A stretch of 64,000 nucleotides of DNA from Bacteroidota bacterium (GCA_046303115.1 JBKCGZ010000166.1:6389-70388); one strand, 5' to 3'; shown: positions 28,964 to 63,424, numbered from the stretch's first letter. Notes: generated by a model not told the origin, from the sequence alone. Translations and numbers: made by a program.

Positions 28964-29048
28964 TGGTGACCAGAACGAGACTCGAACTCGTACGCCTTGC
29001 AGCGCCACCCCCTCAAAGTGGTGCGTCTACCAATTCCGCCACCTGGCC
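28964..29048 (-). tRNA. tRNA-Leu (anticodon GAG), class II, encoded CCA
   Basis: GGCCAGGTGGCGGAATTGGTAGACGCA-CCACT-TTGAGGG-GGTGG-CGCTGCAAGGCGT-ACGAG-TTCGAGT-CTCGT-TCTGGTCACCA. Seven-bp acceptor stem with two GU pairs, 3-bp D-stem, long variable arm, T-loop TTCGAGT, anticodon loop U-U-GAG-G-G. Confidence 0.8.
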
Positions 29049-48948: not shown

Positions 48949-51429
48949 ATGAATCAGGACACTACTAACGCCTACGACTACAAAGTAAACAACCCCAATA
49001 ACGATCAGAAAAACGAAAGTGAAAATACCATTAACCTTTCGCAAATAATAAACAAGTATTTCCTTCGCTATTGGTATTTATATGTTTATACATTAAGCCT
49101 TTCATTAGTTACAGCTTACTTTTATAACTGGTATGCAGACAGAGTTTATTTTTCATCATGTACCGTATTGATTAAAGACGAGAAGAAAAACGTTAACAGC
49201 AGTGATTTATTAACGCAGCTAGGGGCATTTAATAACGAAGGCGGTATTGAAAATGAAATAGGGATTATACGTTCAAGAATGCTCATATCCAAAACGATTG
49301 AAGAATTACAACTTTATAAAAGCTATTATCTAATTGGTGATGTAAAAACTTCTGAAATTTTTGCACTCAAGCCTTTTGAATTAAAAGAAGATACTCTTTA
49401 TAGTCTTGCTTTTAATACATCCATTAAATTGGAAATTATAAACAGTAATAAGTATAAACTAACTTACCAAAAGGGAAATACAGAACATATAGGTTATTAT
49501 TTATTTAATCGTAAAATAAGCAACGATTTAGGAATATTTTCAATCGATAAGACATCTGACTTTAGTCGACAGCCATACGATTCAAAAAATTTCACAAAAA
49601 GAAAATTCATTGTTAAAGTTGCAGATAAAAGTCTATTAACTGATATTTATCAAAGCGCTTTAAAAGCAGAGCCCATCAGCAAACAAGCTTCGATGCTTCA
49701 AATATCAATTCAGGGAGCTACTCCATCTAAGAATGAAGCATTCTTAAATAAACTTTGCGAGCTTTATGTAAAGAAAGGGATTGAAGTCAAAAATGAATAT
49801 GCTGTTAACACACTTAACTTCATTGAACAGCAGCTTGGGGCATTGACTGGTGAGATTAATGAGAATGAAGTTAACGTAGAAAGATTCAGAGTTTCAAGAG
49901 GGATAACTGATTTATCTATTGAAGCCAACGCATATTTAGAAAGTGTAAAAAACTTCAACGGACAAATTTCACAATTGGCAGTGCAAAGCAGCTTTCTTGA
50001 TTACCTTGGTGGTTATGTTAAATCAGACAATAAAAATTTAACAGGAAATATATCACCAGGAAGTATATTAGTTAATGATCCATTATTACAAAGCTTAGTT
50101 TTAAAACTAAATGAATTAGAAAACAAGAAAAAGTCGCAATCTAACTTATCTAAGGAAGACAATCCGTTAATGGTTAGTTTAAATACTGAAATTGCAAATA
50201 CTAAAGCGGCATTATCAGAAAACATTAAATCACTCAAAAGTGGAATTAATGCTTCCTTAAGCGAAGCCAGAAGTCAGCGAGGAAGTGTTGAATCTAAGTT
50301 AAGAAGATTACCAAGTGCACAACGAGAATTACAAGGGATGTTAAGAGGTTCAAATATTAAAGAACAGCTTTACTCCTACCTATTACAGAAAAAAGCAGAG
50401 ACAGCTATCTTATTAGCATCAACAACTGCTGATAACCGAGTAATTGATAATGCAAGGACATTTATCAAGCCTCTTAAGCCGATACAAAGTTTAAGTTACA
50501 CCATTGCCGTTATATTCGGTTTGATATTACCTGCGTTCTTTATTTATATCAGAACTGCTTTTAACGATCGCATTATCGACCGTAATGATTTAGACGCAAG
50601 AACAAACATTCCTGTAATAGGTATGATTGGATTAAGTGCCTCAAAGTCAAACTTGGTTGTAACTGAAAAGCCGAACTCTCATATTTCGGAAGCATTTAGA
50701 ACAATCCGTACCAACTTGCAATATTTCAATCAAGGCAATCAAAAAGCAACTATTCTCATAACATCATCAATCTCATCGGAAGGAAAAAGTTTTACGTCTG
50801 TAAACCTTGCGTGTATGATGGCTATGTCTGGTAGAAAAACAATCCTGGTAGGTTGCGACTTACGTAAACCTAAAATAGCTATCGGATTTGACTTCGTATC
50901 AGAGATTGGATTAAGTAATTATTTGATTGGATTAAATACCGAAAAAGAAATTATTCAAAACTCGGGAACGATTCCTAATCTTGATATTATCTTATCAGGA
51001 CCTAAGCCTCCTAACCCATCTGAATTAATTATCTCTCCAAAAATGGAAGAGTTATTCGTTTATTTAAAAGCGAATTATGATTATATCATTCTCGATACAC
51101 CTCCTGTTGGATTGATCACAGATGCGATGGTACTTTCAAAGTATGTAGATGTAAGTATATACATGGTTCGTCAGCGTGTAACCAGAAAACACCATTTGAA
51201 CTTTATCAATAAACTATATAACGAAGGTAAATTAAAAAATGTCTGCATTGTATTTAACGCTATCAAGGCATCTAACAGAAGCTATGGTTATGGATATGAA
51301 TACGGATATGGATATGGGTATGGATACGGTTATGGCTATGGTTATGGCTATTACGAAGAAGATAAGGAAAGAAAAAGTTTAAAATCTACTTTTAAAAAGC
51401 TATTTAAACGAAAGAGTTCCAAAGCCTAA
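48949..51429 (+). CDS. wzc: Polysaccharide co-polymerase / BY-kinase (Wzc-like tyrosine autokinase)
   Basis: 826 aa. Wzz-like N-domain with two TMs. Walker A-like TSSISSEGKSFTSVNLA. Walker B YDYIILDTPPVG. Tail SYGYGYEYGYGYGYGYGYGYGYGYY. Confidence 0.85.
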   Translation: MNQDTTNAYDYKVNNPNNDQKNESENTINLSQIINKYFLRYWYLYVYTLSLSLVTAYFYNWYADRVYFSSCTVLIKDEKKNVNSSDLLTQLGAFNNEGGIENEIGIIRSRMLISKTIEELQLYKSYYLIGDVKTSEIFALKPFELKEDTLYSLAFNTSIKLEIINSNKYKLTYQKGNTEHIGYYLFNRKISNDLGIFSIDKTSDFSRQPYDSKNFTKRKFIVKVADKSLLTDIYQSALKAEPISKQASMLQISIQGATPSKNEAFLNKLCELYVKKGIEVKNEYAVNTLNFIEQQLGALTGEINENEVNVERFRVSRGITDLSIEANAYLESVKNFNGQISQLAVQSSFLDYLGGYVKSDNKNLTGNISPGSILVNDPLLQSLVLKLNELENKKKSQSNLSKEDNPLMVSLNTEIANTKAALSENIKSLKSGINASLSEARSQRGSVESKLRRLPSAQRELQGMLRGSNIKEQLYSYLLQKKAETAILLASTTADNRVIDNARTFIKPLKPIQSLSYTIAVIFGLILPAFFIYIRTAFNDRIIDRNDLDARTNIPVIGMIGLSASKSNLVVTEKPNSHISEAFRTIRTNLQYFNQGNQKATILITSSISSEGKSFTSVNLACMMAMSGRKTILVGCDLRKPKIAIGFDFVSEIGLSNYLIGLNTEKEIIQNSGTIPNLDIILSGPKPPNPSELIISPKMEELFVYLKANYDYIILDTPPVGLITDAMVLSKYVDVSIYMVRQRVTRKHHLNFINKLYNEGKLKNVCIVFNAIKASNRSYGYGYEYGYGYGYGYGYGYGYGYYEEDKERKSLKSTFKKLFKRKSSKA
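51281..51354. repeat. Tandem hexanucleotide (GGN-TAY)n repeat encoding the (GY)12 tail of Wzc
   Basis: gctatggttatggatatgaatacggatatggatatgggtatggatacggttatggctatggttatggctattac. Confidence 0.8.
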
Positions 51430-51445
51430 CTTAATAAATTAGACG

Positions 51446-53959
51446 ATGAAACAAATTCGTGCTAAACTAAAATCTGTTTTAGACGGAGAGACCCAAACAC
51501 TATTTAAAAACAGTGTTTGGGTTTTTGTGTCAAACATTTATGGTGTATTGCTCGCCTTCCTGCGATCAATAGTGATAGCACGTGGATTAGGTGCTGAAAT
51601 CCTGGGAATTTACTCAGTCATAATTGCTTTTGTTTTAACTATTCAAGAAGTAATAAAACTAAATGTCCCATTAGGAATTATTAAATTCGGCGCACAATTT
51701 ATTTCACACAAATCACCTGAAAAAGTAATCAGCCTTCTAAAAAGAGGCATCATGTATAGCATGCTTTCTGCATTGCTATCGGTTATTGTCATTGCAATAA
51801 TAACTCATTTTTTATATCCGCACTTTTTCGATATTGTAGGACTACAGAAATTTATCATTCTTTATGCGGCAGTAAATGGAATTTGCTTTTTAGACAATAT
51901 AGGAAGAGCTGTATTAAAAATCTATTATCGATTTAAAGTGAATTCCATCGTTCAAATAATAATGGACACAATTGAATTTGCGGCCATAACACTTTCTATT
52001 TATTATTTCCCAAATAATCTTGACTATTTCTTTTATACAGTCATATCGACTAAATTATTGAATTCCTTAATCTGTAATTTGTCAGTTATTATTGAATTAA
52101 GAAAGGACTTGTTCCCTTATTTAAAAACACCTGTTAGTGCTATCAAAAGTCATTACTCCGAAATACGTCATTTTATATTTGGAAATTCATTTGGAAACAC
52201 TTTGAAAACTTTTTTAAATCAAGGCGATATTCTTCTATTGAATCTCTTAGGCACTCATGCCACTGTAGGATTTTATGCGGTATCCAAAAAACTAGCTTAT
52301 GCTATTTTAATTGTAACTGACCCTTTAGTAACTTCTATTTACCCTCAATTAGCTCACCTAGTTGCACAAAACAAATGGAAAGAATTAAAGTTAATGATAG
52401 GTAAAATTACCAGAATTGCATTAATCCCATCAGCAATTGCGACAATTATAATTTTCTTTTTGAAAGGAAATATTATAACATTTCTTTACGGGCCATCATT
52501 TATTCAATCTGTACCAACCTTCTTTATTCATTTTATGGGTGCTGCATCTGGCTCAATATTATTTTGGACGTTGCCATTAATGCAAGGCCTCAACCTAACT
52601 AACAAAAGAATTAAGATTTATTTGTTTGCAATTCTAATCAATTTCGTTTTAGCTTATCTTCTGACTTCACATTTAGGGCCTGTTGGGGTTGCAATTGGTT
52701 TGCTATCTGCTAATTTATTTATCAATTGCTATTTTGATTTTTATTGTCTGAAAAGAATAAATAAAAAAATTACGTTAAGTGATGATACTAGAGAAACAGT
52801 ATACATATATTTATCGCCATATGATATATTAAGACCGAGAACAAATCAACTAAGTGATGTTCGTTTTTGTGATGGGTTTGTACAAAATAATAGAACTATC
52901 CACCTCGTAGTTCCCTTTGTAAAAAGAGAAGATAATATTTCTAAAGAAGATGTTCCAAGAATTTATGGAATTTCAGACAAATTAAACATTCACTATTTAA
53001 ACACAAATTTTAAATCCGATGTAAAAGGGAAAATTAATCTAATAAAAATAGTTGTTCTTAATTACTTCAAAATAAGAAAACTCTCTAGTGATAAACAACG
53101 TAATTACATTGTTATTTCAAGGAGCCTTGCCATCTTATTTCCCTTTTTAATTACAAAGGCGTTTAACAGAAAAAATTTAAAGTTTACTTATTGGGCACAT
53201 GACTTTAGTAAGAAAAAATTATTTCATTGGAGCTACGGCTTATGCGATAATATAATTGCTACAAATTCTTCTATTACAAATTCAATTTATCAGCTTACCA
53301 ATTACCCTATTAACAAAACAATTATTTCATCAAATCCAATTACACAAAATCAAGCTGATGACTACATTGATAAAATTGAAGCCAGAGACTTACTTGAAAT
53401 AAAACATTCTAAACAAGTGGTTGTTTATACTGGAAAGTTAGCAATTGACTATAACTTAGAATTAGAATATATTTTAAAAGCCGCTAAGCGTTTACCAAAA
53501 TTTGAATTTATTTTTACCGGTGGCACTCCTTTAGCCGTTGATTATTGGAAAGAATGGTGCGATGATAATGGAATTGACAATGCGGTTTTCACTGGATATA
53601 TTCACGATTATCAAAAAATAAAATACTATCAGTTTGCTGCTGATATCCTTGTTTCATATTATACAAAACAGGGACATGATGTCAACTATAATTTCCCCAA
53701 TAAAATATGTGAATACATGCTCACTGGGAATCCAATTGTCACTCCGAACTACCCAGCCACTCAAGATATTTTAAATGAACACAACTGTTATTTCGTAGCA
53801 CCAGAAAATGATATCGAGTTAGCAAACAAAATAAAAATGGCTATAGAAGACGAAGAAAAATCAGCAATTATCGCTAGCCAGGCACGTTTTGATGTCCAAC
53901 AAAACACTTTTAAAATAAGAGTTTCAAATATTATTAACTTTTTAGAAAGCAATGACTAA
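51446..53959 (+). CDS. Fusion protein: Wzx-type polysaccharide flippase (MOP superfamily, about 440 aa, about 12 TM) plus GT4-family glycosyltransferase
   Basis: 837 aa, one uninterrupted ORF. The N-half is all TM helices. The C-half has a GT-B fold with the E-x7-E motif NKICEYMLTGNPIV and no TM. Confidence 0.7.
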   Translation: MKQIRAKLKSVLDGETQTLFKNSVWVFVSNIYGVLLAFLRSIVIARGLGAEILGIYSVIIAFVLTIQEVIKLNVPLGIIKFGAQFISHKSPEKVISLLKRGIMYSMLSALLSVIVIAIITHFLYPHFFDIVGLQKFIILYAAVNGICFLDNIGRAVLKIYYRFKVNSIVQIIMDTIEFAAITLSIYYFPNNLDYFFYTVISTKLLNSLICNLSVIIELRKDLFPYLKTPVSAIKSHYSEIRHFIFGNSFGNTLKTFLNQGDILLLNLLGTHATVGFYAVSKKLAYAILIVTDPLVTSIYPQLAHLVAQNKWKELKLMIGKITRIALIPSAIATIIIFFLKGNIITFLYGPSFIQSVPTFFIHFMGAASGSILFWTLPLMQGLNLTNKRIKIYLFAILINFVLAYLLTSHLGPVGVAIGLLSANLFINCYFDFYCLKRINKKITLSDDTRETVYIYLSPYDILRPRTNQLSDVRFCDGFVQNNRTIHLVVPFVKREDNISKEDVPRIYGISDKLNIHYLNTNFKSDVKGKINLIKIVVLNYFKIRKLSSDKQRNYIVISRSLAILFPFLITKAFNRKNLKFTYWAHDFSKKKLFHWSYGLCDNIIATNSSITNSIYQLTNYPINKTIISSNPITQNQADDYIDKIEARDLLEIKHSKQVVVYTGKLAIDYNLELEYILKAAKRLPKFEFIFTGGTPLAVDYWKEWCDDNGIDNAVFTGYIHDYQKIKYYQFAADILVSYYTKQGHDVNYNFPNKICEYMLTGNPIVTPNYPATQDILNEHNCYFVAPENDIELANKIKMAIEDEEKSAIIASQARFDVQQNTFKIRVSNIINFLESND

Positions 53960-54893
53960 TTTGTCGAAATATTTAAACTATGGTTATACCAACCGATTAA
54001 GTAAATACTTGTCAAAGTTATTACCTGATCGTTTAGTTTTTTCATTTTTAGTGAAAACGAATTCGGCTCAGCAAAACAACACTTCTTCAAATACAGAAAC
54101 AATAGAATTATCAACATTAAATCAAAACAATACTTTAGCTAAAGAACTTAAATTACTATGCTCATCTTATAATTTTGAAAACAACATATCACTTGTTGTA
54201 TTTGGAAGTTTTTCAACGGAAGAGCTGATTACCTATAGTGACTTTGATGGTGTATTGATTTATGACGAAACGAAATTCATCAATTTTAGATTGATAATTC
54301 AATTACGAAAGATAATCGAACAAATTAATTTATATGCACACCTTCAAGATAGTTTACAACACCACGGAATTTTAGTTGTCGGAAAAAATGAACTCCTGAA
54401 CAACTCAAATAGTATCATAAATCAATTAATTAAAGAGTCGAAAGTTATTTCTGGCGACAGAATAATAAGATTAAACATTCAAAGTAATTCAAACTACAGA
54501 GATTCATTAAACAAATTAATTAAAAGCATTCAATTAAAATTACATCAAGAAGCAAAATGGACGAACCAATACTTTTTTAAAAACTTATTGAGTGAATTAT
54601 TACTGCTCCCCTGTTCATATTTACAATACAAAACAGAGAACTACGTATCAAAAAAAGATAGTTTTGAATTAATAAAAAACCATTTATTGTCTAATGAAAT
54701 AAATTTAATTAGCGAGCTGGAAAAAATCAGAACAAACTGGACTCAACCAATTATAAATAATCAAGATTTATCACACACCTCCGTTGAAAAAATCAAAAAC
54801 AATTCTAAAACACAAATAGAAGCTATCTCTACATTATCAGAAATAAAAGAAGATTTGCTTTCATTTATTATTAGATTAAAACCGAATGATTAA
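53952..54893 (+). CDS. Pol-beta-superfamily nucleotidyltransferase-fold protein, function unknown
   Basis: 313 aa. LVVFGSFSTEELITYSDFDGVLIYDE matches G-S-x(9-12)-D-x-D. AT-rich, with N/S/K low-complexity flanks. ATGACTAA overlap with the upstream gene. Confidence 0.45.
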   Translation: MTNLSKYLNYGYTNRLSKYLSKLLPDRLVFSFLVKTNSAQQNNTSSNTETIELSTLNQNNTLAKELKLLCSSYNFENNISLVVFGSFSTEELITYSDFDGVLIYDETKFINFRLIIQLRKIIEQINLYAHLQDSLQHHGILVVGKNELLNNSNSIINQLIKESKVISGDRIIRLNIQSNSNYRDSLNKLIKSIQLKLHQEAKWTNQYFFKNLLSELLLLPCSYLQYKTENYVSKKDSFELIKNHLLSNEINLISELEKIRTNWTQPIINNQDLSHTSVEKIKNNSKTQIEAISTLSEIKEDLLSFIIRLKPND

Positions 54894-56286
54894 AATAGCA
54901 TTTATAATCGATAAAGGGTTTATGCAATCTCTAATTGAGAAATGCAGGAAACAACTTTTGTCTGATTTAAATTGCAGTATTGATACAATTCAATGGAATC
55001 ATGAATTACGAAAAAGCTTTTCAAAAGCCGATGAATATGATTTTGTGATTAATTTTTCAACGCATACATTATTTAAGAAAGATTATCCGCACGAAAATCT
55101 TATACAAATTCCATTTATTTCTAATTTGCGATCAGGAATATCTAGAGAATTATATCAAAGCATTATCAATAATGATGATAGTTTTTTACTGAATACAATA
55201 AAAACGTTTGCAGGAAAACAATCTTTTCAAATACATGGGCATCGCTATTTACTAATCCATCATTCGTATAATCGATCATTTAAATTTATAATTGATAAAA
55301 TTCCAAACTTATTGATTGAATCGATAAATCGTTTCCATATTGAGAACCAAACAATCTGGCAAGACAATCATCCGAAGTCAATACCAATTAGAAAATACAA
55401 GTTTGAACTATTCATTAAGAAGATAAAGCATTACCTTAAAACTGCATTTACCTACCATTATTGGAAAACTGGTATTATAGAAAACACCGTTTCGGAAGTG
55501 CTAAAAAACAAAATACTGCTTAAACAAGTACAGTGGATAAAAACTAAAAACAAACGAGATTTTATCGCTGACCCTTTTGGTTTTACTACAGGAAATGGTG
55601 ACTATATCATTTATGAGAAATACAATTGGAATAAAAAGAAAGGGCATATTGAAGTAAGCGAACGCTTAACACAAAGAATTGTATTTAAATTAAAAGCTGA
55701 TTTCCATTTTAGTTATCCGTTTGTATTGGAAGACTCAAACGAAATTTATATTATTCCAGAAACACACCAGACCAATTCGATTGACCTATACAAATGGAAT
55801 GATAATAAACAGGAAATGGAAATGACAAAAACAATAATTGATAATTTTCCTGGAGTAGACAATACCATCTTAAAACACAATAATAAATATTGGTTATTCT
55901 GCACGACATCAAAGTATAAAATGTCAGACCATCAATTAAATCTATTTTATGCAGATAAATTAACAGGAAATTGGACCCCACACCCCCTGAATCCCATTGT
56001 AACATCAATCACTAATTCAAGACCAGCAGGAAGCTTTATCAAAATAGGAGGAAAAATTATTCGTCCTTCACAAAATAGCGGATTAACCTATGGTGGCAAA
56101 ATAGTTTTCAATGAAATCATAGAACTATCAGAAACAAAATATGCTGAAAAGATTATTGAAGTGTTCTCTCCAGAAGATTTCAAAAATAAAAGTATAAAGG
56201 GTATTCATACGATAAGCCCATTGGGCAATTCAACTTTAATTGATGCCAAATTCACAGGATTTAAAATTGGTAAACTTCATTTCTAG
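54886..56286 (+). CDS. Hypothetical two-domain protein: N-terminal alpha/beta domain plus C-terminal GH43-like five-bladed beta-propeller-type domain
   Basis: 466 aa. The C-half starts FIADPFGFTTGNGDYIIYE and continues WTPHPLNPIV...GSFIKIGGKIIRP...GLTYGGKIVF, resembling a GH43/GH32-type propeller. Confidence 0.4.
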   Translation: MIKIAFIIDKGFMQSLIEKCRKQLLSDLNCSIDTIQWNHELRKSFSKADEYDFVINFSTHTLFKKDYPHENLIQIPFISNLRSGISRELYQSIINNDDSFLLNTIKTFAGKQSFQIHGHRYLLIHHSYNRSFKFIIDKIPNLLIESINRFHIENQTIWQDNHPKSIPIRKYKFELFIKKIKHYLKTAFTYHYWKTGIIENTVSEVLKNKILLKQVQWIKTKNKRDFIADPFGFTTGNGDYIIYEKYNWNKKKGHIEVSERLTQRIVFKLKADFHFSYPFVLEDSNEIYIIPETHQTNSIDLYKWNDNKQEMEMTKTIIDNFPGVDNTILKHNNKYWLFCTTSKYKMSDHQLNLFYADKLTGNWTPHPLNPIVTSITNSRPAGSFIKIGGKIIRPSQNSGLTYGGKIVFNEIIELSETKYAEKIIEVFSPEDFKNKSIKGIHTISPLGNSTLIDAKFTGFKIGKLHF

Positions 56287-56287
56287 T

Positions 56288-57265
56288 ATGCAGATCATCA
56301 ATTATCCTTTAACAGGCTATCAAAAAGAAGACTACTTTCATTTATATGAAAAAGTTGTTGATTCGCTGAAAACCAATCCAGCTATTAAATGCATCTGTAC
56401 TTTTGGAGGTGTAAATCAACCAGGCATTTCTGATATTGACTTGCTGATCACGTTTAAAAATGATTGCCGTTTTAGTGGTGATATAATTTCCGATCTGACA
56501 GAAAGAGAAAGATTGTTGTTTACACATGGAGTAATGGCACTTTCAGAGCAACATTGGTTTCAGAATAAATCCTACGCGATGTGGGACAATCAAAAATTAA
56601 TTTTCGGAGAACAACCTGACGGTAACAACATTTTAGTTTCGAATGAAGAATTATCAGCTCTAAAAAAACAAACCGCTTTAGAATTTCTATTTACTAACTA
56701 TATTGACTTGACGTTGCAGAAGGAATATGGAGTAATTAAATTGAGAGATTTACTTCAACATACCAAAGGACTAACGTACGATTTAAATTATTTGAATTTG
56801 TTGAACACTTCAATCGATAATTACATCTCAAATGCAAAAGAATGGATTGCTAACTGGCATCAGAAACAACCAAGCAATCGAGAGATTGAAAAATGGTTTA
56901 TTGATTTTCATCAAGCTTATTCAAAATTTATACAATCAGTATTTGAAGCAGACAAAATTTATTTGCCAGGATCTGTAAATAGAAATTTTTCAAAAAATAT
57001 TATACTTAAATCATCTAAAACAATCTCATATACACGCAGTGGATTACTTCTTCCTTCATTCATTGCTCCTCTAGGGCAAAAACGATATTTAAAATTAATG
57101 AACAAACTCAATAATTTTGAGTTTTCATTACCTTACACAGCTAACGCCGATAACAGTATATTAGAAAAAAGAATTCAGTTCTTTAAAGAAATGAAAATGT
57201 ACAATCAATTACATTTTCCAAAACTTGGATTACTTACAACAAGTTTAATGTCAAAATTAGTTTAA
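56288..57265 (+). CDS. Pol-beta-superfamily nucleotidyltransferase (NTP_transf_2-like) protein, function unknown
   Basis: 326 aa from ATG 56288. ICTFGGVNQPGISDIDLLITF is a canonical hG[GS]x(7-10)[ST]DxDhhh motif. Confidence 0.5.
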   Translation: MQIINYPLTGYQKEDYFHLYEKVVDSLKTNPAIKCICTFGGVNQPGISDIDLLITFKNDCRFSGDIISDLTERERLLFTHGVMALSEQHWFQNKSYAMWDNQKLIFGEQPDGNNILVSNEELSALKKQTALEFLFTNYIDLTLQKEYGVIKLRDLLQHTKGLTYDLNYLNLLNTSIDNYISNAKEWIANWHQKQPSNREIEKWFIDFHQAYSKFIQSVFEADKIYLPGSVNRNFSKNIILKSSKTISYTRSGLLLPSFIAPLGQKRYLKLMNKLNNFEFSLPYTANADNSILEKRIQFFKEMKMYNQLHFPKLGLLTTSLMSKLV

Positions 57266-57267
57266 CA

Positions 57268-57984
57268 ATGGAATTAAAAAACCCCGGTGCATTAATCGAA
57301 AATAATTGGAGATACAATTTTTTAAAAGAGTATTTTAAAAACAATCCATTTAAAGGTGCTACATTACTTGATTTAGGATGTGGACCACGCCCCTATTATT
57401 CGATTTACAAAAACTATTTCGACAAATCGATTGGAGCTGAAATGGCTGACATGCCTTTCCCACAAAAAGCAATTGATATTTACTGCTCAGCTACTGATGT
57501 TCCTTTGCCTGATGAAAGCATTGATTGTATCTTATGTACAGAGGTAATGCAAGACATGAAGGAGCCATCCGAATTAATCAATGAATGCTATAGATTATTA
57601 AAAAAAGGTGGAACATTAATTCTTACTACTCCATACCTTGTACCGATTGCTGATGGACAATGGGATAATTATCGCTTTACGCAATATGGATTAAAATACA
57701 CAATTGAAAAAGGTGGATTTAGAGAGCTATCTGTTTATCCTGTAAGCGATGTCGTTGGTGCCGGAATCACCTTACTAGTGAAGCCTGTATTGCGTTTCTG
57801 GAATTTATTAGCAAAAGCTACGCGCATTAAATTACTAGGACAATGGTATAATCCATTACTATTTATTACAGTAATGATTCCTCAATTAGTGTACATGGCT
57901 TTACGTCCATTACCAATTTTAAAATCTGCATTCAAAAATTTCAGCTACGGACCTATTGGTTATATAACTATATCAAAAAAATAA
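57268..57984 (+). CDS. Class I SAM-dependent methyltransferase
   Basis: 238 aa. Motif I ATLLDLGCGPRPY. Post-I acidic residue. LLKKGGTLILTTP. Confidence 0.8.
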   Translation: MELKNPGALIENNWRYNFLKEYFKNNPFKGATLLDLGCGPRPYYSIYKNYFDKSIGAEMADMPFPQKAIDIYCSATDVPLPDESIDCILCTEVMQDMKEPSELINECYRLLKKGGTLILTTPYLVPIADGQWDNYRFTQYGLKYTIEKGGFRELSVYPVSDVVGAGITLLVKPVLRFWNLLAKATRIKLLGQWYNPLLFITVMIPQLVYMALRPLPILKSAFKNFSYGPIGYITISKK

Positions 57985-57985
57985 A

Positions 57986-59062
57986 ATGAAAGTTTTACAT
58001 ATCATATGGTCGTCGAATATAGGAGGGATAGAAAGCGTTGTGCTTAATTTAGCATCAGCGCAGCAAAACCATGGTATAGTAAAACCTACACTCTTTGCAG
58101 CCAAATCAGAAGGTCCATTATTTGAAAAGGCACAAGAAAAAAATATTGATCTAATAAAAGGTAATTTCAAAAAAGGAAGCAGCAATATTTTCAAGATTAA
58201 TGAATGTATAAAGTTATTTCAGCAATTCGACATACTCCATCTTCATTCTTTCAATCCAATAATTGCACTTGCTGCTATTCGTTCAAAACGAAAAATTGTT
58301 TTTACCGAACATGGAAACTTTGCCTTTGAGAGAAAGCAAGGAATTTCAGAGAAATTTTCTAAAAAGCTTCAAGAATTATTTATAAATAAATGTGCCAATC
58401 ACATCACTTTCAATTCTGAATTTTCAAAAGCAACTGCAATTGCAAAATATCATCTAACTAAAAAACCATTGAGTGTTGTTTATAACGGAGTTGAATTACC
58501 CCCAACGGTTGAAAAGAAAACAAAATCATCTGATACTATTCGAATTGGATTTGTTGGTCGCTTAGTAGAAGTTAAAAGAGTTGATCGCCTAATTGAAGTT
58601 ATCTCAGCTATTAATGATAAATCTAAAATCAAGGTAGAACTCATAGGTGATGGTCCACTGAGGCAGAATATTCTTAATCAACTAGCTGAAAAAAATTTAA
58701 CAAATATTATTAAGCTTTTAGGATTCAAAAATAATTTATCGATTTATTATAGCCAGTGGGATCTACTACTTGCGCCTTCGACTAATGAAGCATTTGGACT
58801 TGTCGCAATAGAAGCATATTCTAACGGATGCGCGGTAGCTGTATTTAGTGATGGCGGGGGGTTAGCTGAATTAGTAAATCAATGTGAACCCAATATGGTT
58901 TTTAAATCAACTAACGAACTTACCGCGTTCATTGAATCACTAATCGAAAAGTCACAAGATCTGAACGAAATTAACATTCGAAATCATCGTAAAGCATTTG
59001 CTCAGCAATTCTCCATTGAAAAGATGGAATCAGCAATTAACCAAGTTTACTTATCTTTATAA
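57986..59062 (+). CDS. Glycosyltransferase family 4
   Basis: 358 aa. EAFGLVAIEAYSNGCAVAV (E-x7-E). IGDGPLRQ. Confidence 0.85.
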   Translation: MKVLHIIWSSNIGGIESVVLNLASAQQNHGIVKPTLFAAKSEGPLFEKAQEKNIDLIKGNFKKGSSNIFKINECIKLFQQFDILHLHSFNPIIALAAIRSKRKIVFTEHGNFAFERKQGISEKFSKKLQELFINKCANHITFNSEFSKATAIAKYHLTKKPLSVVYNGVELPPTVEKKTKSSDTIRIGFVGRLVEVKRVDRLIEVISAINDKSKIKVELIGDGPLRQNILNQLAEKNLTNIIKLLGFKNNLSIYYSQWDLLLAPSTNEAFGLVAIEAYSNGCAVAVFSDGGGLAELVNQCEPNMVFKSTNELTAFIESLIEKSQDLNEINIRNHRKAFAQQFSIEKMESAINQVYLSL

Positions 59063-59063
59063 C

Positions 59064-60962
59064 ATGTGTGGAATTAATGGATTTATGATGCTGGGAAACA
59101 GCTTGCCTATTGAAGCAAGTGAACACCTCGTGCGTATGAATCAACGTATTCAACACAGAGGCCCTGATGATCAAGGTGCTTATATCAACACTGAAAAAGG
59201 AATTGCTCTTGGACATTTACGACTAAGTATCATTGATTTGTCAGATGCCGGACATCAACCCATGTTTGATGAAAGAGGGAATTGCATTGTTTTTAATGGG
59301 GAGATTTATAATTATAAATCCATAAAAAAAGAAATCACTGACTGCGTTTTTAAATCCGACAGTGATACAGAAGTGTTATTACAACTTTATCACAAAGAAG
59401 GGCATGCTGCATTACAAAAGTTAAATGGAATGTTTGCATTTGCTTATTTCGATAACAAGAATAATGTATTAAAATTAGCAAGAGATAGGGCTGGTAAAAA
59501 ACCGCTCTACTACTCTGCTATGGGCGGAGTGTTTTCGTTTTCATCTGAAATAAAAGCGCTCTTAGAATTACCTTGGATAAAGAAAGAAATTGATGAAGAA
59601 GCGCTCTATCACTTTTTAACCTTTAATCATGTAGATGCGCCTTCTACATTTTTCAAAGGTATTAAAAAACTTGGTGCTGGTGAATACATGACCGTTAGCA
59701 ATAATGGAATTATAGAATTGAAATCCTATTATGACATACACTACGAGAATTTAAATCATTCAAGTGAAAAATTAATTGAAGAAACATTATTTGAAAAGTT
59801 AAATAAGTCGGTTGATTTAAGAATGTTAGCAGATGTACCTGTTGGTGCATTTTTAAGTGGTGGCGTCGACTCAAGTGCCGTTGTTGCAATGATGAGGGCA
59901 AGAACAGCAGGATCAATTAAAACATTCTCTGTTGGATTTGAAGGACAGCCAGACTACGATGAAAGGATATATGCTCAAAAAATAGCGAAGCAGTTTAACA
60001 CTGATCATTATGAAAAGATTGTAGGTAAAGAAGATATCGAAAACTTTTTGCCATCTGTTGTTTCCATATTTGATGAACCCATGGCGGATGCCACTTGTAT
60101 ACCTGTTTATTTTATTTCTGAATTAGCAAGGAAACACAATACCATTGTTGTACAAACGGGAGATGGTGCAGATGAGTTATTAGCAGGATATAATAGCTGG
60201 CAAAAATATGAACAGATATATCCTTATTACAATTTATTGAACAAGCTTCCAAAAAGTCTATTACAACTTGCGTCATCAACTATTGGATATGATGATAACA
60301 AAACAGGAATCAAAGAAATAATTTACCGTGCTGCTAACGGACAAGAATTATTTTGGGGAGGAGCAAAAGCATTTAAAGAAAATACTAAAAAGCAGATTCT
60401 ATCATCTGAATTTCTAAGCAATCATGCATCATTAGATTCTTATGCTGTAATCAAAAAGCATCTGAACGAATTTCAAAAAATTCGAGAGAAAAACAATTGG
60501 TTAAGTGATAAGGATTGGATGTGCTATCTGGGATATAAGTACTTAATTCCTGCTAAATACCTCTATCGGATGGATCGTATAGGAATGGCACATAGTATTG
60601 AAATCAGAAATCCTTTTTTAGATTATGAATTTGTAGATTATGCATTATCGATTCCATATTCGCTAAAGTCAAAAAACAAAATTCCAAAATACATTTTAAA
60701 AAAATCGCTAGAAGGGACATTGCCAAATGAAATTCTTTATCGAAAGAAAATGGGATTCTGTGTTCCATTGAGAGAATGGTCGCAAGATATTATTATCAGA
60801 AATATTGAAAGTGATTTAAGCAGCTTTTGTAAAAACACGAACATCTTTAGTGAGTCGGGATTAAGAACACAAATTAACGCGATGAAGAACGGGAAGAAAG
60901 ATTACACGAATAATCTTTGGACGATCTATTTCATCATGCAATGGTTTAAAAAATGGATGTAA
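59064..60962 (+). CDS. asnB: Asparagine synthase (glutamine-hydrolysing) family amidotransferase
   Basis: MCGINGFM (Ntn Cys2). PP-loop FLSGGVDSS. Confidence 0.88.
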   Translation: MCGINGFMMLGNSLPIEASEHLVRMNQRIQHRGPDDQGAYINTEKGIALGHLRLSIIDLSDAGHQPMFDERGNCIVFNGEIYNYKSIKKEITDCVFKSDSDTEVLLQLYHKEGHAALQKLNGMFAFAYFDNKNNVLKLARDRAGKKPLYYSAMGGVFSFSSEIKALLELPWIKKEIDEEALYHFLTFNHVDAPSTFFKGIKKLGAGEYMTVSNNGIIELKSYYDIHYENLNHSSEKLIEETLFEKLNKSVDLRMLADVPVGAFLSGGVDSSAVVAMMRARTAGSIKTFSVGFEGQPDYDERIYAQKIAKQFNTDHYEKIVGKEDIENFLPSVVSIFDEPMADATCIPVYFISELARKHNTIVVQTGDGADELLAGYNSWQKYEQIYPYYNLLNKLPKSLLQLASSTIGYDDNKTGIKEIIYRAANGQELFWGGAKAFKENTKKQILSSEFLSNHASLDSYAVIKKHLNEFQKIREKNNWLSDKDWMCYLGYKYLIPAKYLYRMDRIGMAHSIEIRNPFLDYEFVDYALSIPYSLKSKNKIPKYILKKSLEGTLPNEILYRKKMGFCVPLREWSQDIIIRNIESDLSSFCKNTNIFSESGLRTQINAMKNGKKDYTNNLWTIYFIMQWFKKWM

Positions 60963-62107
60963 TGAAGAAGGTCCTTTTAATTACCAACATACCCAACCCC
61001 TATCGCGTTCCGTTATTCAACGAGCTTTCTAAGCAATTAAAAAATGAGAATATCCATTTAAAAATAATTTTTGCAAATAAAACTTATAAAAGAAGGCTCT
61101 TTCAATTAAATGAAAATGAATTTCAATTTGATTATTCTTTTTTAGATAACGAAGCCATTACGATTGGGAACAACACAGAGAATTCTTATTTTACCTATAA
61201 AGGACTTAGTCAACATTTGAAAAAAGAAAAGCCAGATGCAATAGTTGTATCAGGATTTTCAAGCGCTACAGTAAAAGTATTTTTGTATTCGTTACTTACA
61301 CGGACACCTTACCTAATCTGGAATGGTTCAATAGCCAAAAAAGGAAGGAAGGATAGTCTCGTAAGAACGATGCAAAGAAAACTGTTAACTCGTTTCGCAT
61401 CTGCATTTGTTGCTTACGGAACTAAAGCAAAATCCTATTTAGCAAGTTTAGGAGCCCGAGAAGAAAAAGTTTTTATTGCAACTAACACAGTCGACACAAG
61501 TTTCTTTGAACAAGAAACAGAAAAACATCGAGCAACGTTGGTAAATGATGGTACGAATCATTTTATTTATCTTGGATATTTAGTACCAAGAAAAAATGTT
61601 GGTCAGTTAATTGAAATTGCTAAAATTTTAAAATCACAACGCAATGATTTTTGTATTGACATAATTGGTGATGGAGAAAGCAAACAAGCACTAGAAAAAA
61701 TGGTTGTTGATTATCAACTTTCGGATCAAATAAAATTTCACGGATTTAAGCAGAAAGAAGAACTTCCGCCCTACTTTGCTAAAGCAAAGGCATTGTTATT
61801 CCAAACCGACTTTGATATTTGGGGACTTGTACTAAACGAAGCTATGGCTGCGGGTGTACCTTGTCTATCTTCTATAAATGCTGGGGCAAGTGAAGATTTA
61901 ATCAACAATGGTGTTAATGGTTACATAGTAGATTATCAAAATAAAGAGGAAATAGTAGAAAAAATCAATTTTATTATCGAAAATCCGGAAAAAGCTCAGG
62001 AATTAGGGAAACAAGCTGGGGACTTTATCCGTAACAATGCTTCACTTTCAAAGGCCTCGACGGGGTTTGTGAAGGCTATAAAAACGTCATTGCACTTATT
62101 TATCTAA
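60953..62107 (+). CDS. Glycosyltransferase family 4
   Basis: 384 aa. DIWGLVLNEAMAAGVPCLSS. IGDGESKQ. Confidence 0.8.
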   Translation: MDVMKKVLLITNIPNPYRVPLFNELSKQLKNENIHLKIIFANKTYKRRLFQLNENEFQFDYSFLDNEAITIGNNTENSYFTYKGLSQHLKKEKPDAIVVSGFSSATVKVFLYSLLTRTPYLIWNGSIAKKGRKDSLVRTMQRKLLTRFASAFVAYGTKAKSYLASLGAREEKVFIATNTVDTSFFEQETEKHRATLVNDGTNHFIYLGYLVPRKNVGQLIEIAKILKSQRNDFCIDIIGDGESKQALEKMVVDYQLSDQIKFHGFKQKEELPPYFAKAKALLFQTDFDIWGLVLNEAMAAGVPCLSSINAGASEDLINNGVNGYIVDYQNKEEIVEKINFIIENPEKAQELGKQAGDFIRNNASLSKASTGFVKAIKTSLHLFI

Positions 62108-62155
62108 CAAAAACTATTTTTACAAAGCATAATTGCCGAGTAAAAATTAAAGATT

Positions 62156-63424
62156 ATGAACTTTCGAATTTGGCTCAAGTGGTTTAAGTCGCTGCACATT
62201 ACTAAAAAATGGTTTATTGTTCTGATATTAATCAGACCAATCGTCGATAATTTTTATGAGCTGAAAGAAACATCTTCGTTAGCAAGTCCGCTATACATTG
62301 TTGGAGTATTAACTCCCATATTAATTTTATTTAGCGCTACCTCTAATAAACTAGCACGCATTAAACAATCTGTTTATGACAGTCCGTTTAAATTATTTAC
62401 CTACTTCTTGGTCGGAAACTGTTTAATTTTCTATGCTACACAGTTGTCTATATCATCAATCGGTGATGTGATTAAGTATACTACACCAGCTTTAATTTTC
62501 TTCTATTGCAGGATGTTTGTTCAGACAAAAGCTGATCTCGATGGAATCTTATTCGCATGTTTACTAGCATGCATCTTCCCATTAGGAATGATGTTTTACG
62601 AATCGATTTTTAACCCAATTGCGGTTGAGTATGTGAGTGAAGGACGAGGTGGTGGTGCGCGAATTCGTGGTGCTTATGCAGACATTATGAATTATGCAAT
62701 CTACATCGAGATTTTATTTATCACGATAAGTTATTACTTCCTAACGTATATCTATAATAAAACAAAACTTAAAGTAACTCCATTTCATATTGTTATTACA
62801 CTAATGATTGTATTTTTTGGATTAACTAAAATTAAGCAGGTATCGACGTGGGCCGTAACATTAACAGTTTTTGTGTTTTTGATGGTACATAACCTTAAAA
62901 ATGTAAAAGGATTAATCGTAGTATTTTTTGTTTGTATTATTGGAGGATTATTCTTTGCTGAAGATATTTACAACAAGCAAATTGCTCCATTAATTGACAA
63001 AGAAATCAAAGTTGTAGATAATGAAAATGATAAGTCGCAAGCACTTAACGGAAGGATGAGTCGATGGGAAAAATATTTTGAGATATGGGAACAGATGCCA
63101 GTATTGAATCACTTTATAGGCGTACCTAGTTCTAATTTTAAAGAAACAGATAATATGATTAGTGCCGGCATGCACTCCGATTATGTGCGACTATTATTTT
63201 TAACTGGATTTATTGGAGTTGGTGCCTACACGCTTTACTTTATTCTAATTAACACCGCCTATTTCCAACTTTTAATTCCAGAAAAGTTTCTCTTAATATC
63301 GACTACTGCATCCTTGCTTTTATGGTCTGTCAGCACTATTCCAACATTATATGCACCATGGATGTACTTTATGTTTCCAGTAGTAGCTTATGCATCACTC
63401 CCTAAAAAAATGCAGTATTCATGA
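62156..63424 (+). CDS. Wzy-type polymerase / O-antigen-ligase-like polytopic membrane protein
   Basis: 422 aa, about 10 TMs, with a large periplasmic loop (KEIKVVDNENDKSQALNGRMSRWEKY...) typical of Wzy_C proteins. Confidence 0.55.
   Translation: MNFRIWLKWFKSLHITKKWFIVLILIRPIVDNFYELKETSSLASPLYIVGVLTPILILFSATSNKLARIKQSVYDSPFKLFTYFLVGNCLIFYATQLSISSIGDVIKYTTPALIFFYCRMFVQTKADLDGILFACLLACIFPLGMMFYESIFNPIAVEYVSEGRGGGARIRGAYADIMNYAIYIEILFITISYYFLTYIYNKTKLKVTPFHIVITLMIVFFGLTKIKQVSTWAVTLTVFVFLMVHNLKNVKGLIVVFFVCIIGGLFFAEDIYNKQIAPLIDKEIKVVDNENDKSQALNGRMSRWEKYFEIWEQMPVLNHFIGVPSSNFKETDNMISAGMHSDYVRLLFLTGFIGVGAYTLYFILINTAYFQLLIPEKFLLISTTASLLLWSVSTIPTLYAPWMYFMFPVVAYASLPKKMQYS

Follow-up and report, generated by a model that had tools for sequence, protein, structure and literature searches.

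A recurrent pair of putative nucleotidyltransferase genes with variable partners in a Wzx/Wzy polysaccharide locus of a Bacteroidota bacterium, candidates for an undescribed sugar-modifying step

Among the described members of the Pol-beta nucleotidyltransferase superfamily, LicD, fukutin, and FKRP offer a precedent for a role in glycan modification: LicD and FKRP move a phospho-alcohol from a CDP-linked donor (CDP-X) to a glycan hydroxyl, a chemistry equivalent to nucleotidyl transfer, and the phosphocholine or ribitol phosphate that they add has major biological consequences. The aminoglycoside nucleotidyltransferases (ANT enzymes), such as ANT(3'')(9)/AadA and AAD(9), are soluble proteins in which an N-terminal Pol-beta domain with a G-S...D-x-D motif is followed by a helical substrate-binding domain, and they act on hydroxyls of amino-sugar-type molecules. 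TarI-type enzymes, which a preliminary description of the DNA analyzed here had listed as a further example of the fold, are not Pol-beta-fold proteins. Here, we examine a stretch of 64,000 nucleotides from a freshwater Bacteroidota bacterium (GCA_046303115.1 JBKCGZ010000166.1:6389-70388), hereafter the window, with positions counted from its first letter, and in it the four genes A, B, C, and D at 53952-57984. They had been described, from the sequence alone, as a four-gene cassette with no named counterpart, embedded in a Wzx/Wzy polysaccharide operon and possibly acting in glycan decoration. According to our analysis, this stretch belongs to one Wzx/Wzy polysaccharide operon and the absence of a named function is confirmed, but the genes make up three functional units and not one cassette; the four are candidates for an undescribed sugar-modifying step, short of proof. 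All are co-directional open reading frames (ORFs), whose coordinates were confirmed:

53952-54893, + strand: gene A, 313 amino acids, Pol-beta nucleotidyltransferase-fold protein (Pfam NTP_transf_2, AlphaFold, Foldseek)
54886-56286, + strand: gene B, 466 amino acids, formyltransferase-like N-domain plus GINT1_N propeller
54886-55500, + strand: N-terminal domain of B, about residues 1-205, degenerate formyltransferase-like alpha/beta domain
55546-56286, + strand: C-terminal domain of B, residues 221-466, GINT1_N (GH43-like) beta-propeller
56288-57265, + strand: gene C, 325 amino acids from ATG, Pol-beta nucleotidyltransferase-fold protein (AlphaFold, Foldseek)
57268-57984, + strand: gene D, 238 amino acids, class I S-adenosylmethionine (SAM) methyltransferase (Methyltransf_11)

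According to structure models, A and C belong to the Pol-beta superfamily, as remote, ANT-like members with two domains. By Pfam, A matches NTP_transf_2 (E = 2.7e-4, 21.7 bits against a cut-off of 21), and C matches only Polbeta, marginally (E = 0.004). The AlphaFold models computed from the family alignments are confident, with a predicted local distance difference test score (pLDDT) of 87.4 for A and 89.9 for C, and both display the alpha/beta nucleotidyltransferase core fold together with a helical domain, the two-domain architecture that closes on the substrate in ANT enzymes; in the model of C, an extra C-terminal alpha/beta subdomain is present in addition to the helical domain. In Foldseek searches, the best match of A was AAD(9)/AadA (E = 1.3e-4, probability of 1.0, template modeling [TM] score of 0.40 to 0.53), followed by DrrA, LinB, HalB, MNT, and GlnE, while C matched AAD(9)/AadA/HalB (E = 8.5e-4, TM score of 0.23 to 0.42). 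For the two proteins together, the best PDB neighbors are AAD(9), AadA, and ANT(3'')(9), with entries 5g4a, 6fzb, 6sxj, and 7uy4 among them, and then LinB, KNTase, HalB, DrrA, and MNT. The earlier assignment of A and C as Pol-beta nucleotidyltransferases is thus borne out by motifs, weak Pfam matches, and confident models, and the fold comparison that it had proposed returned a likeness to ANT enzymes, albeit a remote one. The other half of that expectation did not hold: neither A nor C has a Pfam match to LicD, and no FKRP/LicD structure appears in the fold-search lists. LicD, fukutin, and FKRP share the superfamily with A and C and have the role suggested for A and C in the preliminary description.

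The Pol-beta signature hG[GS]-x(7-13)-[DE]h[DE]h is found in both proteins on the beta2-beta3 hairpin, as FGS...YSDFDG in A and FGG...ISDIDL in C, and the peptides quoted beforehand (FGSFSTEELITYSDFDGVLIYDE and FGGVNQPGISDIDLLITF, as well as ADPF...DYII of B) were all recovered in the translations. Across 45 sequences of the A family, the invariant residues are G85 S86, S96 D97 x D99, D133 x L Q H137 H138, K210, K234, R260, and W263, and across 154 sequences of the C family, they are G40, P-G-I-S-D49-x-D51, H80, Q128, E132, R153, D165, and W190. Downstream of the signature, therefore, each family carries an invariant His motif (LQHH in A and FTH in C), and charged residues in the helical domains are invariant as well. 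The combination of the G-S/G...S-D-x-D motif, the His, and the helical charged residues argues for active enzymes, and we predict that A and C are strongly divergent members of the Pol-beta superfamily that are catalytically intact as transferases. The His motif distinguishes them from the ANT enzymes, as do the additional C-terminal subdomain of C and the location of the genes, which form a co-translated pair within polysaccharide operons and are not carried by resistance elements; every locus examined is a chromosomal polysaccharide operon. No ANT family profile (Adenyl_transf, KNTase_C, DUF4111, etc.) in Pfam or NCBIfam was matched at E values up to 1. The two proteins show no similarity to each other by BLASTP, while profile-profile alignment (hhalign) superposes their GS/GG, SDxD, and (Q)HH/TH motifs over the nucleotidyltransferase core only, with an E value of 0.052, and their common ancestry is therefore plausible but unproven.

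The C family is large, comprising 1015 representative clusters in an exhaustive profile search, of which 286 were found at E values up to 1e-30. Neither the A nor the C family has a dedicated Pfam or NCBIfam model, and NCBIfam holds no family for A, B, C, or their distant relatives. Single-sequence searches of the PDB with A, B, and C gave nothing useful, and profile searches of the PDB with the A and C families gave generic or chance matches only; for A and C, no match in either kind of search was better than E = 0.048. No hydrophobic segment was found in A, B, or C; A and C are predicted to be soluble and all three cytoplasmic, B for the same lack of hydrophobic segments.

To place the genes in a wider context, we scanned metagenomes with the C-family alignment, which retrieved 48 loci, and mapped A in them by hidden Markov models; the survey of the A family hence covers the loci recovered through C. 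Adjacency could be assessed in the 34 loci with at least 860 bp upstream of C, and A adjoins C in 31 of them, typically with a 4-nucleotide overlap (two loci are convergent). The A-C loci span a GC content of 0.24 to 0.65, the taxonomy of the distant ones being deduced from GC content and sample type only. Wherever checked, the most distant pairs included, A-C adjoins genes for a Wzx or MurJ-type flippase and for GT4 glycosyltransferases, and the GT4-AsnB-GT4-Wzy block that follows D in the window (57986-63424) accompanies the pair in many loci (among L026 to L049). On this comparative basis, A-C appears to be a co-translated two-gene module of Wzx/Wzy loci in many bacteria.

What surrounds the pair is far less constant. 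B lies between A and C in just six of the surveyed loci, all close relatives of the window. One locus (L041) has A-C-D without B, and in two others (L034 and L049), C is directly followed by GT4. Sulfotransferase genes take these places elsewhere: one or two of them fill the slot between A and C in L029 and L036, and in L014 and L028, they lie downstream of C, at the position of D. The sulfotransferase regions extend over 9001-12799 in L014, 6998-9754 in L028, 6279-8960 in L029, and 5333-8926 in L036. The neighborhood survey thus singles out A-C as the core that is conserved, to which B, D, or sulfotransferases are variably added. A single obligatory four-gene cassette, as first described, is rejected by the same survey, since B and D are absent or replaced in other loci: B is an insert of one clade, and D, or B and D together, give way to sulfotransferases. 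Because A and C are kept while sulfotransferases replace B or D, the sister loci would imply a related polysaccharide in versions that carry sulfate in place of methyl groups.

B was described at first as an alpha/beta N-domain joined to a GH43-like propeller, with a GINT1-like fold named as one to compare, and this agrees with our results. Its residues 221-433 match PF24793 (GINT1_N) with an E value of 1.3e-32 and 113.5 bits, against a cut-off of 27, and all 209 homologs detected, most of about 550 amino acids, carry the same domain. With GH43 and GH68 enzymes, B shares blade-level sequence similarity and an acidic residue at the blade start (ADPF, VD). It differs in that its GH43 score (22.8 bits) stays below the Pfam gathering cut-off of 32.2 and in that the alignments land in different blade registers across homologs. 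Because the blades align out of register, a placement of the GH43 catalytic triad on B by profile alignment was rejected, and any correspondence of catalytic residues would be tentative. The best PDB profile match (E = 5.5e-4) covers a single blade only, and no match to GH130 was found. Within the propeller, 25 residues are invariant, including D229, E244, H274, E292, D325, H366, R379, R393, Q396, Y402, and H441. As for the N-terminal domain, the B-family profile matches the formyltransferase domains of Fmt and ArnA across the catalytic-loop region (E = 2e-5), and longer homologs match Pfam Formyl_trans_N. These longer homologs retain the H-x-G-D...R-G-x-P segment, which contains the catalytic His and loop, whereas it is deleted from the B protein of the window, which accordingly lacks the catalytic Asn-His-Asp/folate loop (h-N-x-H-x-S-L-L-P-x-x-R-G) of formyltransferases. 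With this segment lost, formyl transfer by the window's B is very unlikely, and its N-domain is probably a degenerate formyltransferase scaffold with a structural or ligand-binding role. B has no signal peptide or transmembrane segment in its sequence and hence does not look like an ordinary secreted glycosidase.

A direct connection between B and C comes from fusion proteins. Among the 150 top-ranking representatives of the C family, six are B-C fusions, in which a formyltransferase-like domain, a GINT1_N propeller, and C follow each other in the order of the window genes. Within the fusions, the B part resembles the window's B no more than stand-alone homologs do, so the association goes beyond one chance local event, and the occurrence of the fusions elsewhere suggests that B and C are functionally linked. 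Two fusion loci were examined, and no A homolog was found near the fusion in either. In one, the fusion of 882 amino acids (L068, 2142-4790) lies among four genes for B12-binding or radical-SAM proteins; in the other, the fusion of 901 amino acids (L069, 1531-4236) is followed by genes for an acyl-carrier protein, an acyl-CoA dehydrogenase, two AMP-ligases, an amidohydrolase, a GNAT protein, a formyltransferase, and KASIII. Stand-alone B-family proteins are encoded in Wzx/Wzy loci of Formosa, Evansella, and a metagenomic contig (L067), and the family also occurs on rhizobial megaplasmids, in haloarchaea, and in Acinetobacter.

The Acinetobacter member is the one with a history. The propeller of B is 36% identical (E = 2e-34) to Orf1/Ghy of the Acinetobacter baumannii outer-core (OC) locus, and the copy that we inspected sits between ilvE and GT25 genes, just where OCL1 has orf1/ghy, and points in the same direction. 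Orf1/Ghy was first annotated as a GH43-like glycosyl hydrolase (PMC3628348), an assignment later withdrawn (PMC4172580, PMC10327509). All 13 group-A outer-core loci of A. baumannii contain the gene (PMC10327509), and an insertion of ISAba1 in ghy leads to truncated lipooligosaccharide (LOS) (PMC4110982). Orf1 and B both match PF24793 at about 1e-33, and both are cytoplasmic proteins of glycan-assembly loci, encoded beside GT4 genes (PMC4172580, PMC10327509). They differ in that Orf1 consists of the propeller only and belongs to an LOS locus without Wzx/Wzy and without A or C, whereas B has the degenerate formyltransferase-like N-domain in addition and is placed between A and C. The record inspected (L070, NZ_CP104448.1, 522380-547186) is filed in PLSDB as "Acinetobacter baumannii plasmid unnamed1," but at 4.09 Mb, and with the chromosomal ilvE-side outer-core locus on board, it clearly represents a misfiled chromosome; an IS30-family transposase gene adjoins the GT25 genes of this locus.

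D matches Methyltransf_11 (E = 3e-13), Methyltransf_23 (6.9e-10), and Methyltransf_31 (3.4e-8), all above the cut-offs, and is predicted to be a class I SAM-dependent methyltransferase, as had been proposed. Its single hydrophobic stretch lies near the C terminus (residues 197-215, 57856-57912) and may tether D at the membrane with the lipid-linked intermediates.

By analogy with the relatives described above, the function of A and C is most likely a cytoplasmic transfer of a nucleotidyl or phospho-substituent to a sugar hydroxyl of the repeat unit. Starting from the structure and conservation of the genes, the folds, the co-occurrence and fusions, and the cytoplasmic location, we infer a donor, an acceptor, a chemistry, and an order of steps, as follows. 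A and C would each use Mg2+ and a nucleotide donor, either a nucleoside triphosphate (NTP) or an NDP-X compound, as their nearest structural relatives suggest. At the cytoplasmic face, a sugar hydroxyl would attack the donor phosphate, as with ANT enzymes or as with LicD/FKRP and CDP-X; the acceptor would probably be an amino-sugar-containing, undecaprenyl-linked repeat unit or its precursor, and the sugar would be left with a substituent, nucleotidyl or phosphodiester-linked, or with a position that is transiently activated. B, a propeller on a dead formyltransferase scaffold, would act on the same substrate as C, most plausibly as a transferase or processing enzyme rather than as a degradative glycosidase. 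D would O-methylate the product, as an interchangeable decoration that sister loci replace by sulfotransferases. The ArnA formyltransferase domain binds nucleotide-linked amino sugars, and the handling of amino sugars that ANT enzymes and ArnA-type formyltransferase domains have in common may be a hint at the substrate. We put forward this overall scheme, with A and C as core transferases, B as a partner of C, and D as the source of methylation, as a tentative proposal. Its broader form, in which the A-C pair and the GINT1_N propeller, next to it or fused in some lineages, would constitute an undescribed enzyme system of Wzx/Wzy loci across many phyla, for the installation of a nucleotide- or phosphodiester-linked substituent on the repeat unit or for a non-Leloir linkage, we consider unlikely; in the non-Leloir variant, an ANT-like enzyme would O-nucleotidylate a sugar, which the propeller would then transfer or displace.

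Several observations weigh against the proposal. Most A-C loci have no B, and both fusion loci examined have no A, which means that the three genes need not occur together. Since sulfotransferase genes also fill the slot between A and C, the position of B by itself proves nothing. The extra C-terminal subdomain of C found no structural match in the fold search, and the lists that contain the ANT enzymes also contain the protein-modifying DrrA and GlnE and the oligonucleotide-forming HalB. Finally, the ghy insertion in Acinetobacter may act by polar or antisense-promoter effects, according to its authors (PMC4110982). The co-occurrence of the trio, which the preliminary description had suggested checking, accordingly presents two sides, with a recurrent A-C pair and with B-C fusions, but with B in the A-C slot only in close relatives.

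A different arrangement of the same enzymes, doubtful in our view, would have A and C act on soluble precursors, building or activating an unusual nucleotide-linked donor, sugar or non-sugar, instead of modifying a lipid-linked glycan; the transfer of this donor, by a glycosyltransferase or by the B propeller, would complete a non-Leloir-like two-step route. The five-bladed propellers of GH130/GT108 offer a precedent here, since such propellers can be glycosyltransferases or phosphorylases and depend on sugar nucleotides or sugar phosphates as transferases (PMC12814180, PMC10913872). The B-C fusions suggest a hand-over of substrate from nucleotidyltransferase to propeller, the invariant K210, K234, and R260 in the helical domain of A would suit an anionic ligand, and Pfam/NCBIfam annotation detected no nucleotide-sugar synthesis gene in the 48-64 kb segment of the operon. 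On the other hand, B is absent from most A-C loci, the known sugar-1-phosphate nucleotidyltransferases and CMP-sugar synthetases have a different fold, and the evidence fits a soluble and a lipid-linked acceptor alike.

It is quite improbable that A and/or C are regulators, AMPylating or UMPylating a component of the assembly machinery like GlnE, GlnD, or DrrA and thereby setting how much polysaccharide is made. DrrA and GlnE are among the fold matches, but they match more weakly than the small-molecule aminoglycoside enzymes, with AadA the best covered in the two-domain alignment. Moreover, the neighbors of the pair, joined by overlaps of 4 to 8 nucleotides, are glycosyltransferase and decoration genes and not Wzc or regulators, and the pair co-varies with the decoration genes.

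We strongly doubt, likewise, that B is a plain GH43-type hydrolase which trims or recycles the polysaccharide and whose neighborhood with A and C is incidental. This reading could draw on the weak GH43 and GH68 sequence similarity and on the original annotation of the Acinetobacter homolog (PMC3628348), of which the former remains below the GH43 cut-off (22.8 against 32.2 bits) and the latter was withdrawn (PMC4172580, PMC10327509). A protein without a signal peptide, fused to a formyltransferase-like domain and, elsewhere, to C, and belonging to a family found in biosynthetic loci of four phylum-level groups, agrees poorly with such a function, as does an invariant set that holds several Arg and His besides acidic residues.

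That A and C are resistance or defense genes (aminoglycoside or lincosamide nucleotidyltransferases, MNT-type antitoxins, or Hailong/CBASS-like components) is exceedingly improbable, and the defense and toxin-antitoxin version was rejected, since, for all that ANT enzymes, HalB, and MNT antitoxins are the best PDB neighbors, identity to them is just 10 to 15%, ANT, KNTase_C, and DUF4111 have no Pfam match at E values up to 1, the PADLOC matches are marginal (the best, at E = 2.3e-4, to an uncharacterized candidate model), no HEPN or effector partner gene is adjacent, tblastn found no plasmid homologs of A, C, or two distant C-family relatives, and the polysaccharide context is constant in more than 30 loci. 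The two outcomes that would have spoken against a glycan-related system, namely, A and C falling into ANT family profiles or a resistance context and B being a secreted glycosidase, were thus not encountered.

Comparison with relatives indicates that the genes are maintained. Against the two related genomes L001 and L002, the ratio of nonsynonymous to synonymous substitution rates (dN/dS) lies between 0.20 and 0.24 in A and between 0.07 and 0.20 in C, and D has a value of 0.03. B gives 0.12 with L001, while its comparison with L002 is saturated. By this sequence comparison, we take A, B, C, and D to be real genes under purifying selection. A is the fastest-evolving protein, with 64% identity where B and D have 97% and with the highest dN/dS. 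The order A-B-C-D is kept in more than 15 related contigs, and the close clade shows no departure from the longer series Wzc, Wzx, (Methyltransf_24), GT4, A, B, C, D, GT4, AsnB, GT4, Wzy. A Lake Erken metagenome-assembled genome (MAG) labeled "uncultured Bacteroidetes" shares 97% identity with the window at protein B, and further relatives are freshwater and activated-sludge Bacteroidota MAGs.

The preliminary description had further noted that the stretch is the most AT-rich of the window, consistent with horizontal acquisition. The first part holds, as GC content at 54001-55000 (0.271) is the minimum among 1-kb bins of the window; over the whole polysaccharide locus (48 to 64 kb), GC content is 0.27 to 0.35, against 0.31 to 0.41 elsewhere in the window. 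Acquisition of this stretch in particular is not supported, and an acquired island confined to 53952-57984 was rejected because the entire operon is syntenic across relatives, at 46 to 97% protein identity. In its sequence, the locus is an evident recombination mosaic. Between the window and L001, nucleotide identity is 72 to 78% in A, rises to 93 to 99% over most of B, falls to 71% in the 3' portion of C, and reaches 98 to 99% in Wzy, and the synonymous divergence (dS) between neighboring genes over 53952-57265, against L001 and L002, ranges from 0.14 to 1.3.

The other genes of the operon, assigned by Pfam and NCBIfam, are the following:

48138 (start), + strand: Wza
48949 (start), + strand: Wzc tyrosine autokinase
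51446-53959, + strand: Wzx-GT4 fusion, 837 amino acids (residues 1-448, Polysacc_synt flippase; residues 450-837, GT4)
57986 (start), + strand: GT4
59064 (true start, ATG), + strand: AsnB-like amidotransferase
60953 (start), + strand: GT4
62156 (start), + strand: Wzy, the last gene of the GT4-AsnB-GT4-Wzy block (57986-63424)

Reading the junctions directly confirmed the tight packing reported for the four genes, with two 8-nucleotide overlaps followed by gaps of 1 or 2 nucleotides. The start of A overlaps the stop of Wzx-GT4 by 8 nucleotides at 53952-53959 (ATGACTAA), and A and B overlap to the same extent at 54886-54893 (ATGATTAA). B and C are separated by 1 nucleotide (TAG, T, ATG at 56284-56290), C and D by 2 (TAA-CA-ATG at 57263-57270), and D and GT4 by 1 (TAA-A-ATG at 57982-57988). 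The automatic ORF starts TTG 56240 for C and TTG 58998 for the AsnB-like gene fall within the preceding genes; the real starts are ATG 56288 and ATG 59064, which match the 1-nucleotide spacing and the homolog alignments. From ATG 59064, the AsnB-like protein begins with MCGI..., that is, with the N-terminal Cys of an amidotransferase. The Wzx and GT4 halves of the fusion are separate genes in L003 to L012, with a Methyltransf_24 gene of about 740 bp between them, from which it follows that the fusion, common to the window, L001, and L002, arose through a shared in-frame deletion of the methyltransferase gene. A scan for promoters and terminators inside the operon gave nothing above shuffled sequence. 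Toward the C terminus of Wzc (about 51295-51370 of the window), an unusually regular YGYGYEYGYGYGYGYGYGYGYGYY repeat is found, an extended version of the usual tyrosine cluster. As for RNA genes, only one for tRNA-Leu(GAG) was detected in the window, at 28964-29048 on the - strand.

Our literature searches found no relevant description of the function of the GINT1_N propeller or of combinations of nucleotidyltransferase, sulfotransferase, and Wzx, nor any prior description of the A and C families, of their near-obligate pairing in widely differing genomes, or of the fusion or adjacency with a GINT1_N propeller. Each component comes from a known superfamily, and decoration genes are commonplace in polysaccharide operons; the chemistry could be ordinary, such as the addition of a phospho-substituent, or genuinely new.

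Polysaccharide loci are rich in hypothetical genes, and two of those found here form a recurrent co-translated pair with the nucleotidyltransferase fold. If our proposal is true, this pair would represent a second branch of such enzymes, unrelated to LicD/FKRP, and would extend the chemistry to be expected in capsules and exopolysaccharides. The B-C fusions, for their part, provide a first functional lead for the GINT1_N family, to which Orf1/Ghy and the N-terminal domain of plant GINT1 belong, and, if the non-Leloir route were true, the GINT1_N domain of bacterial Orf1/Ghy and of plant GINT1 would thereby gain its first function.

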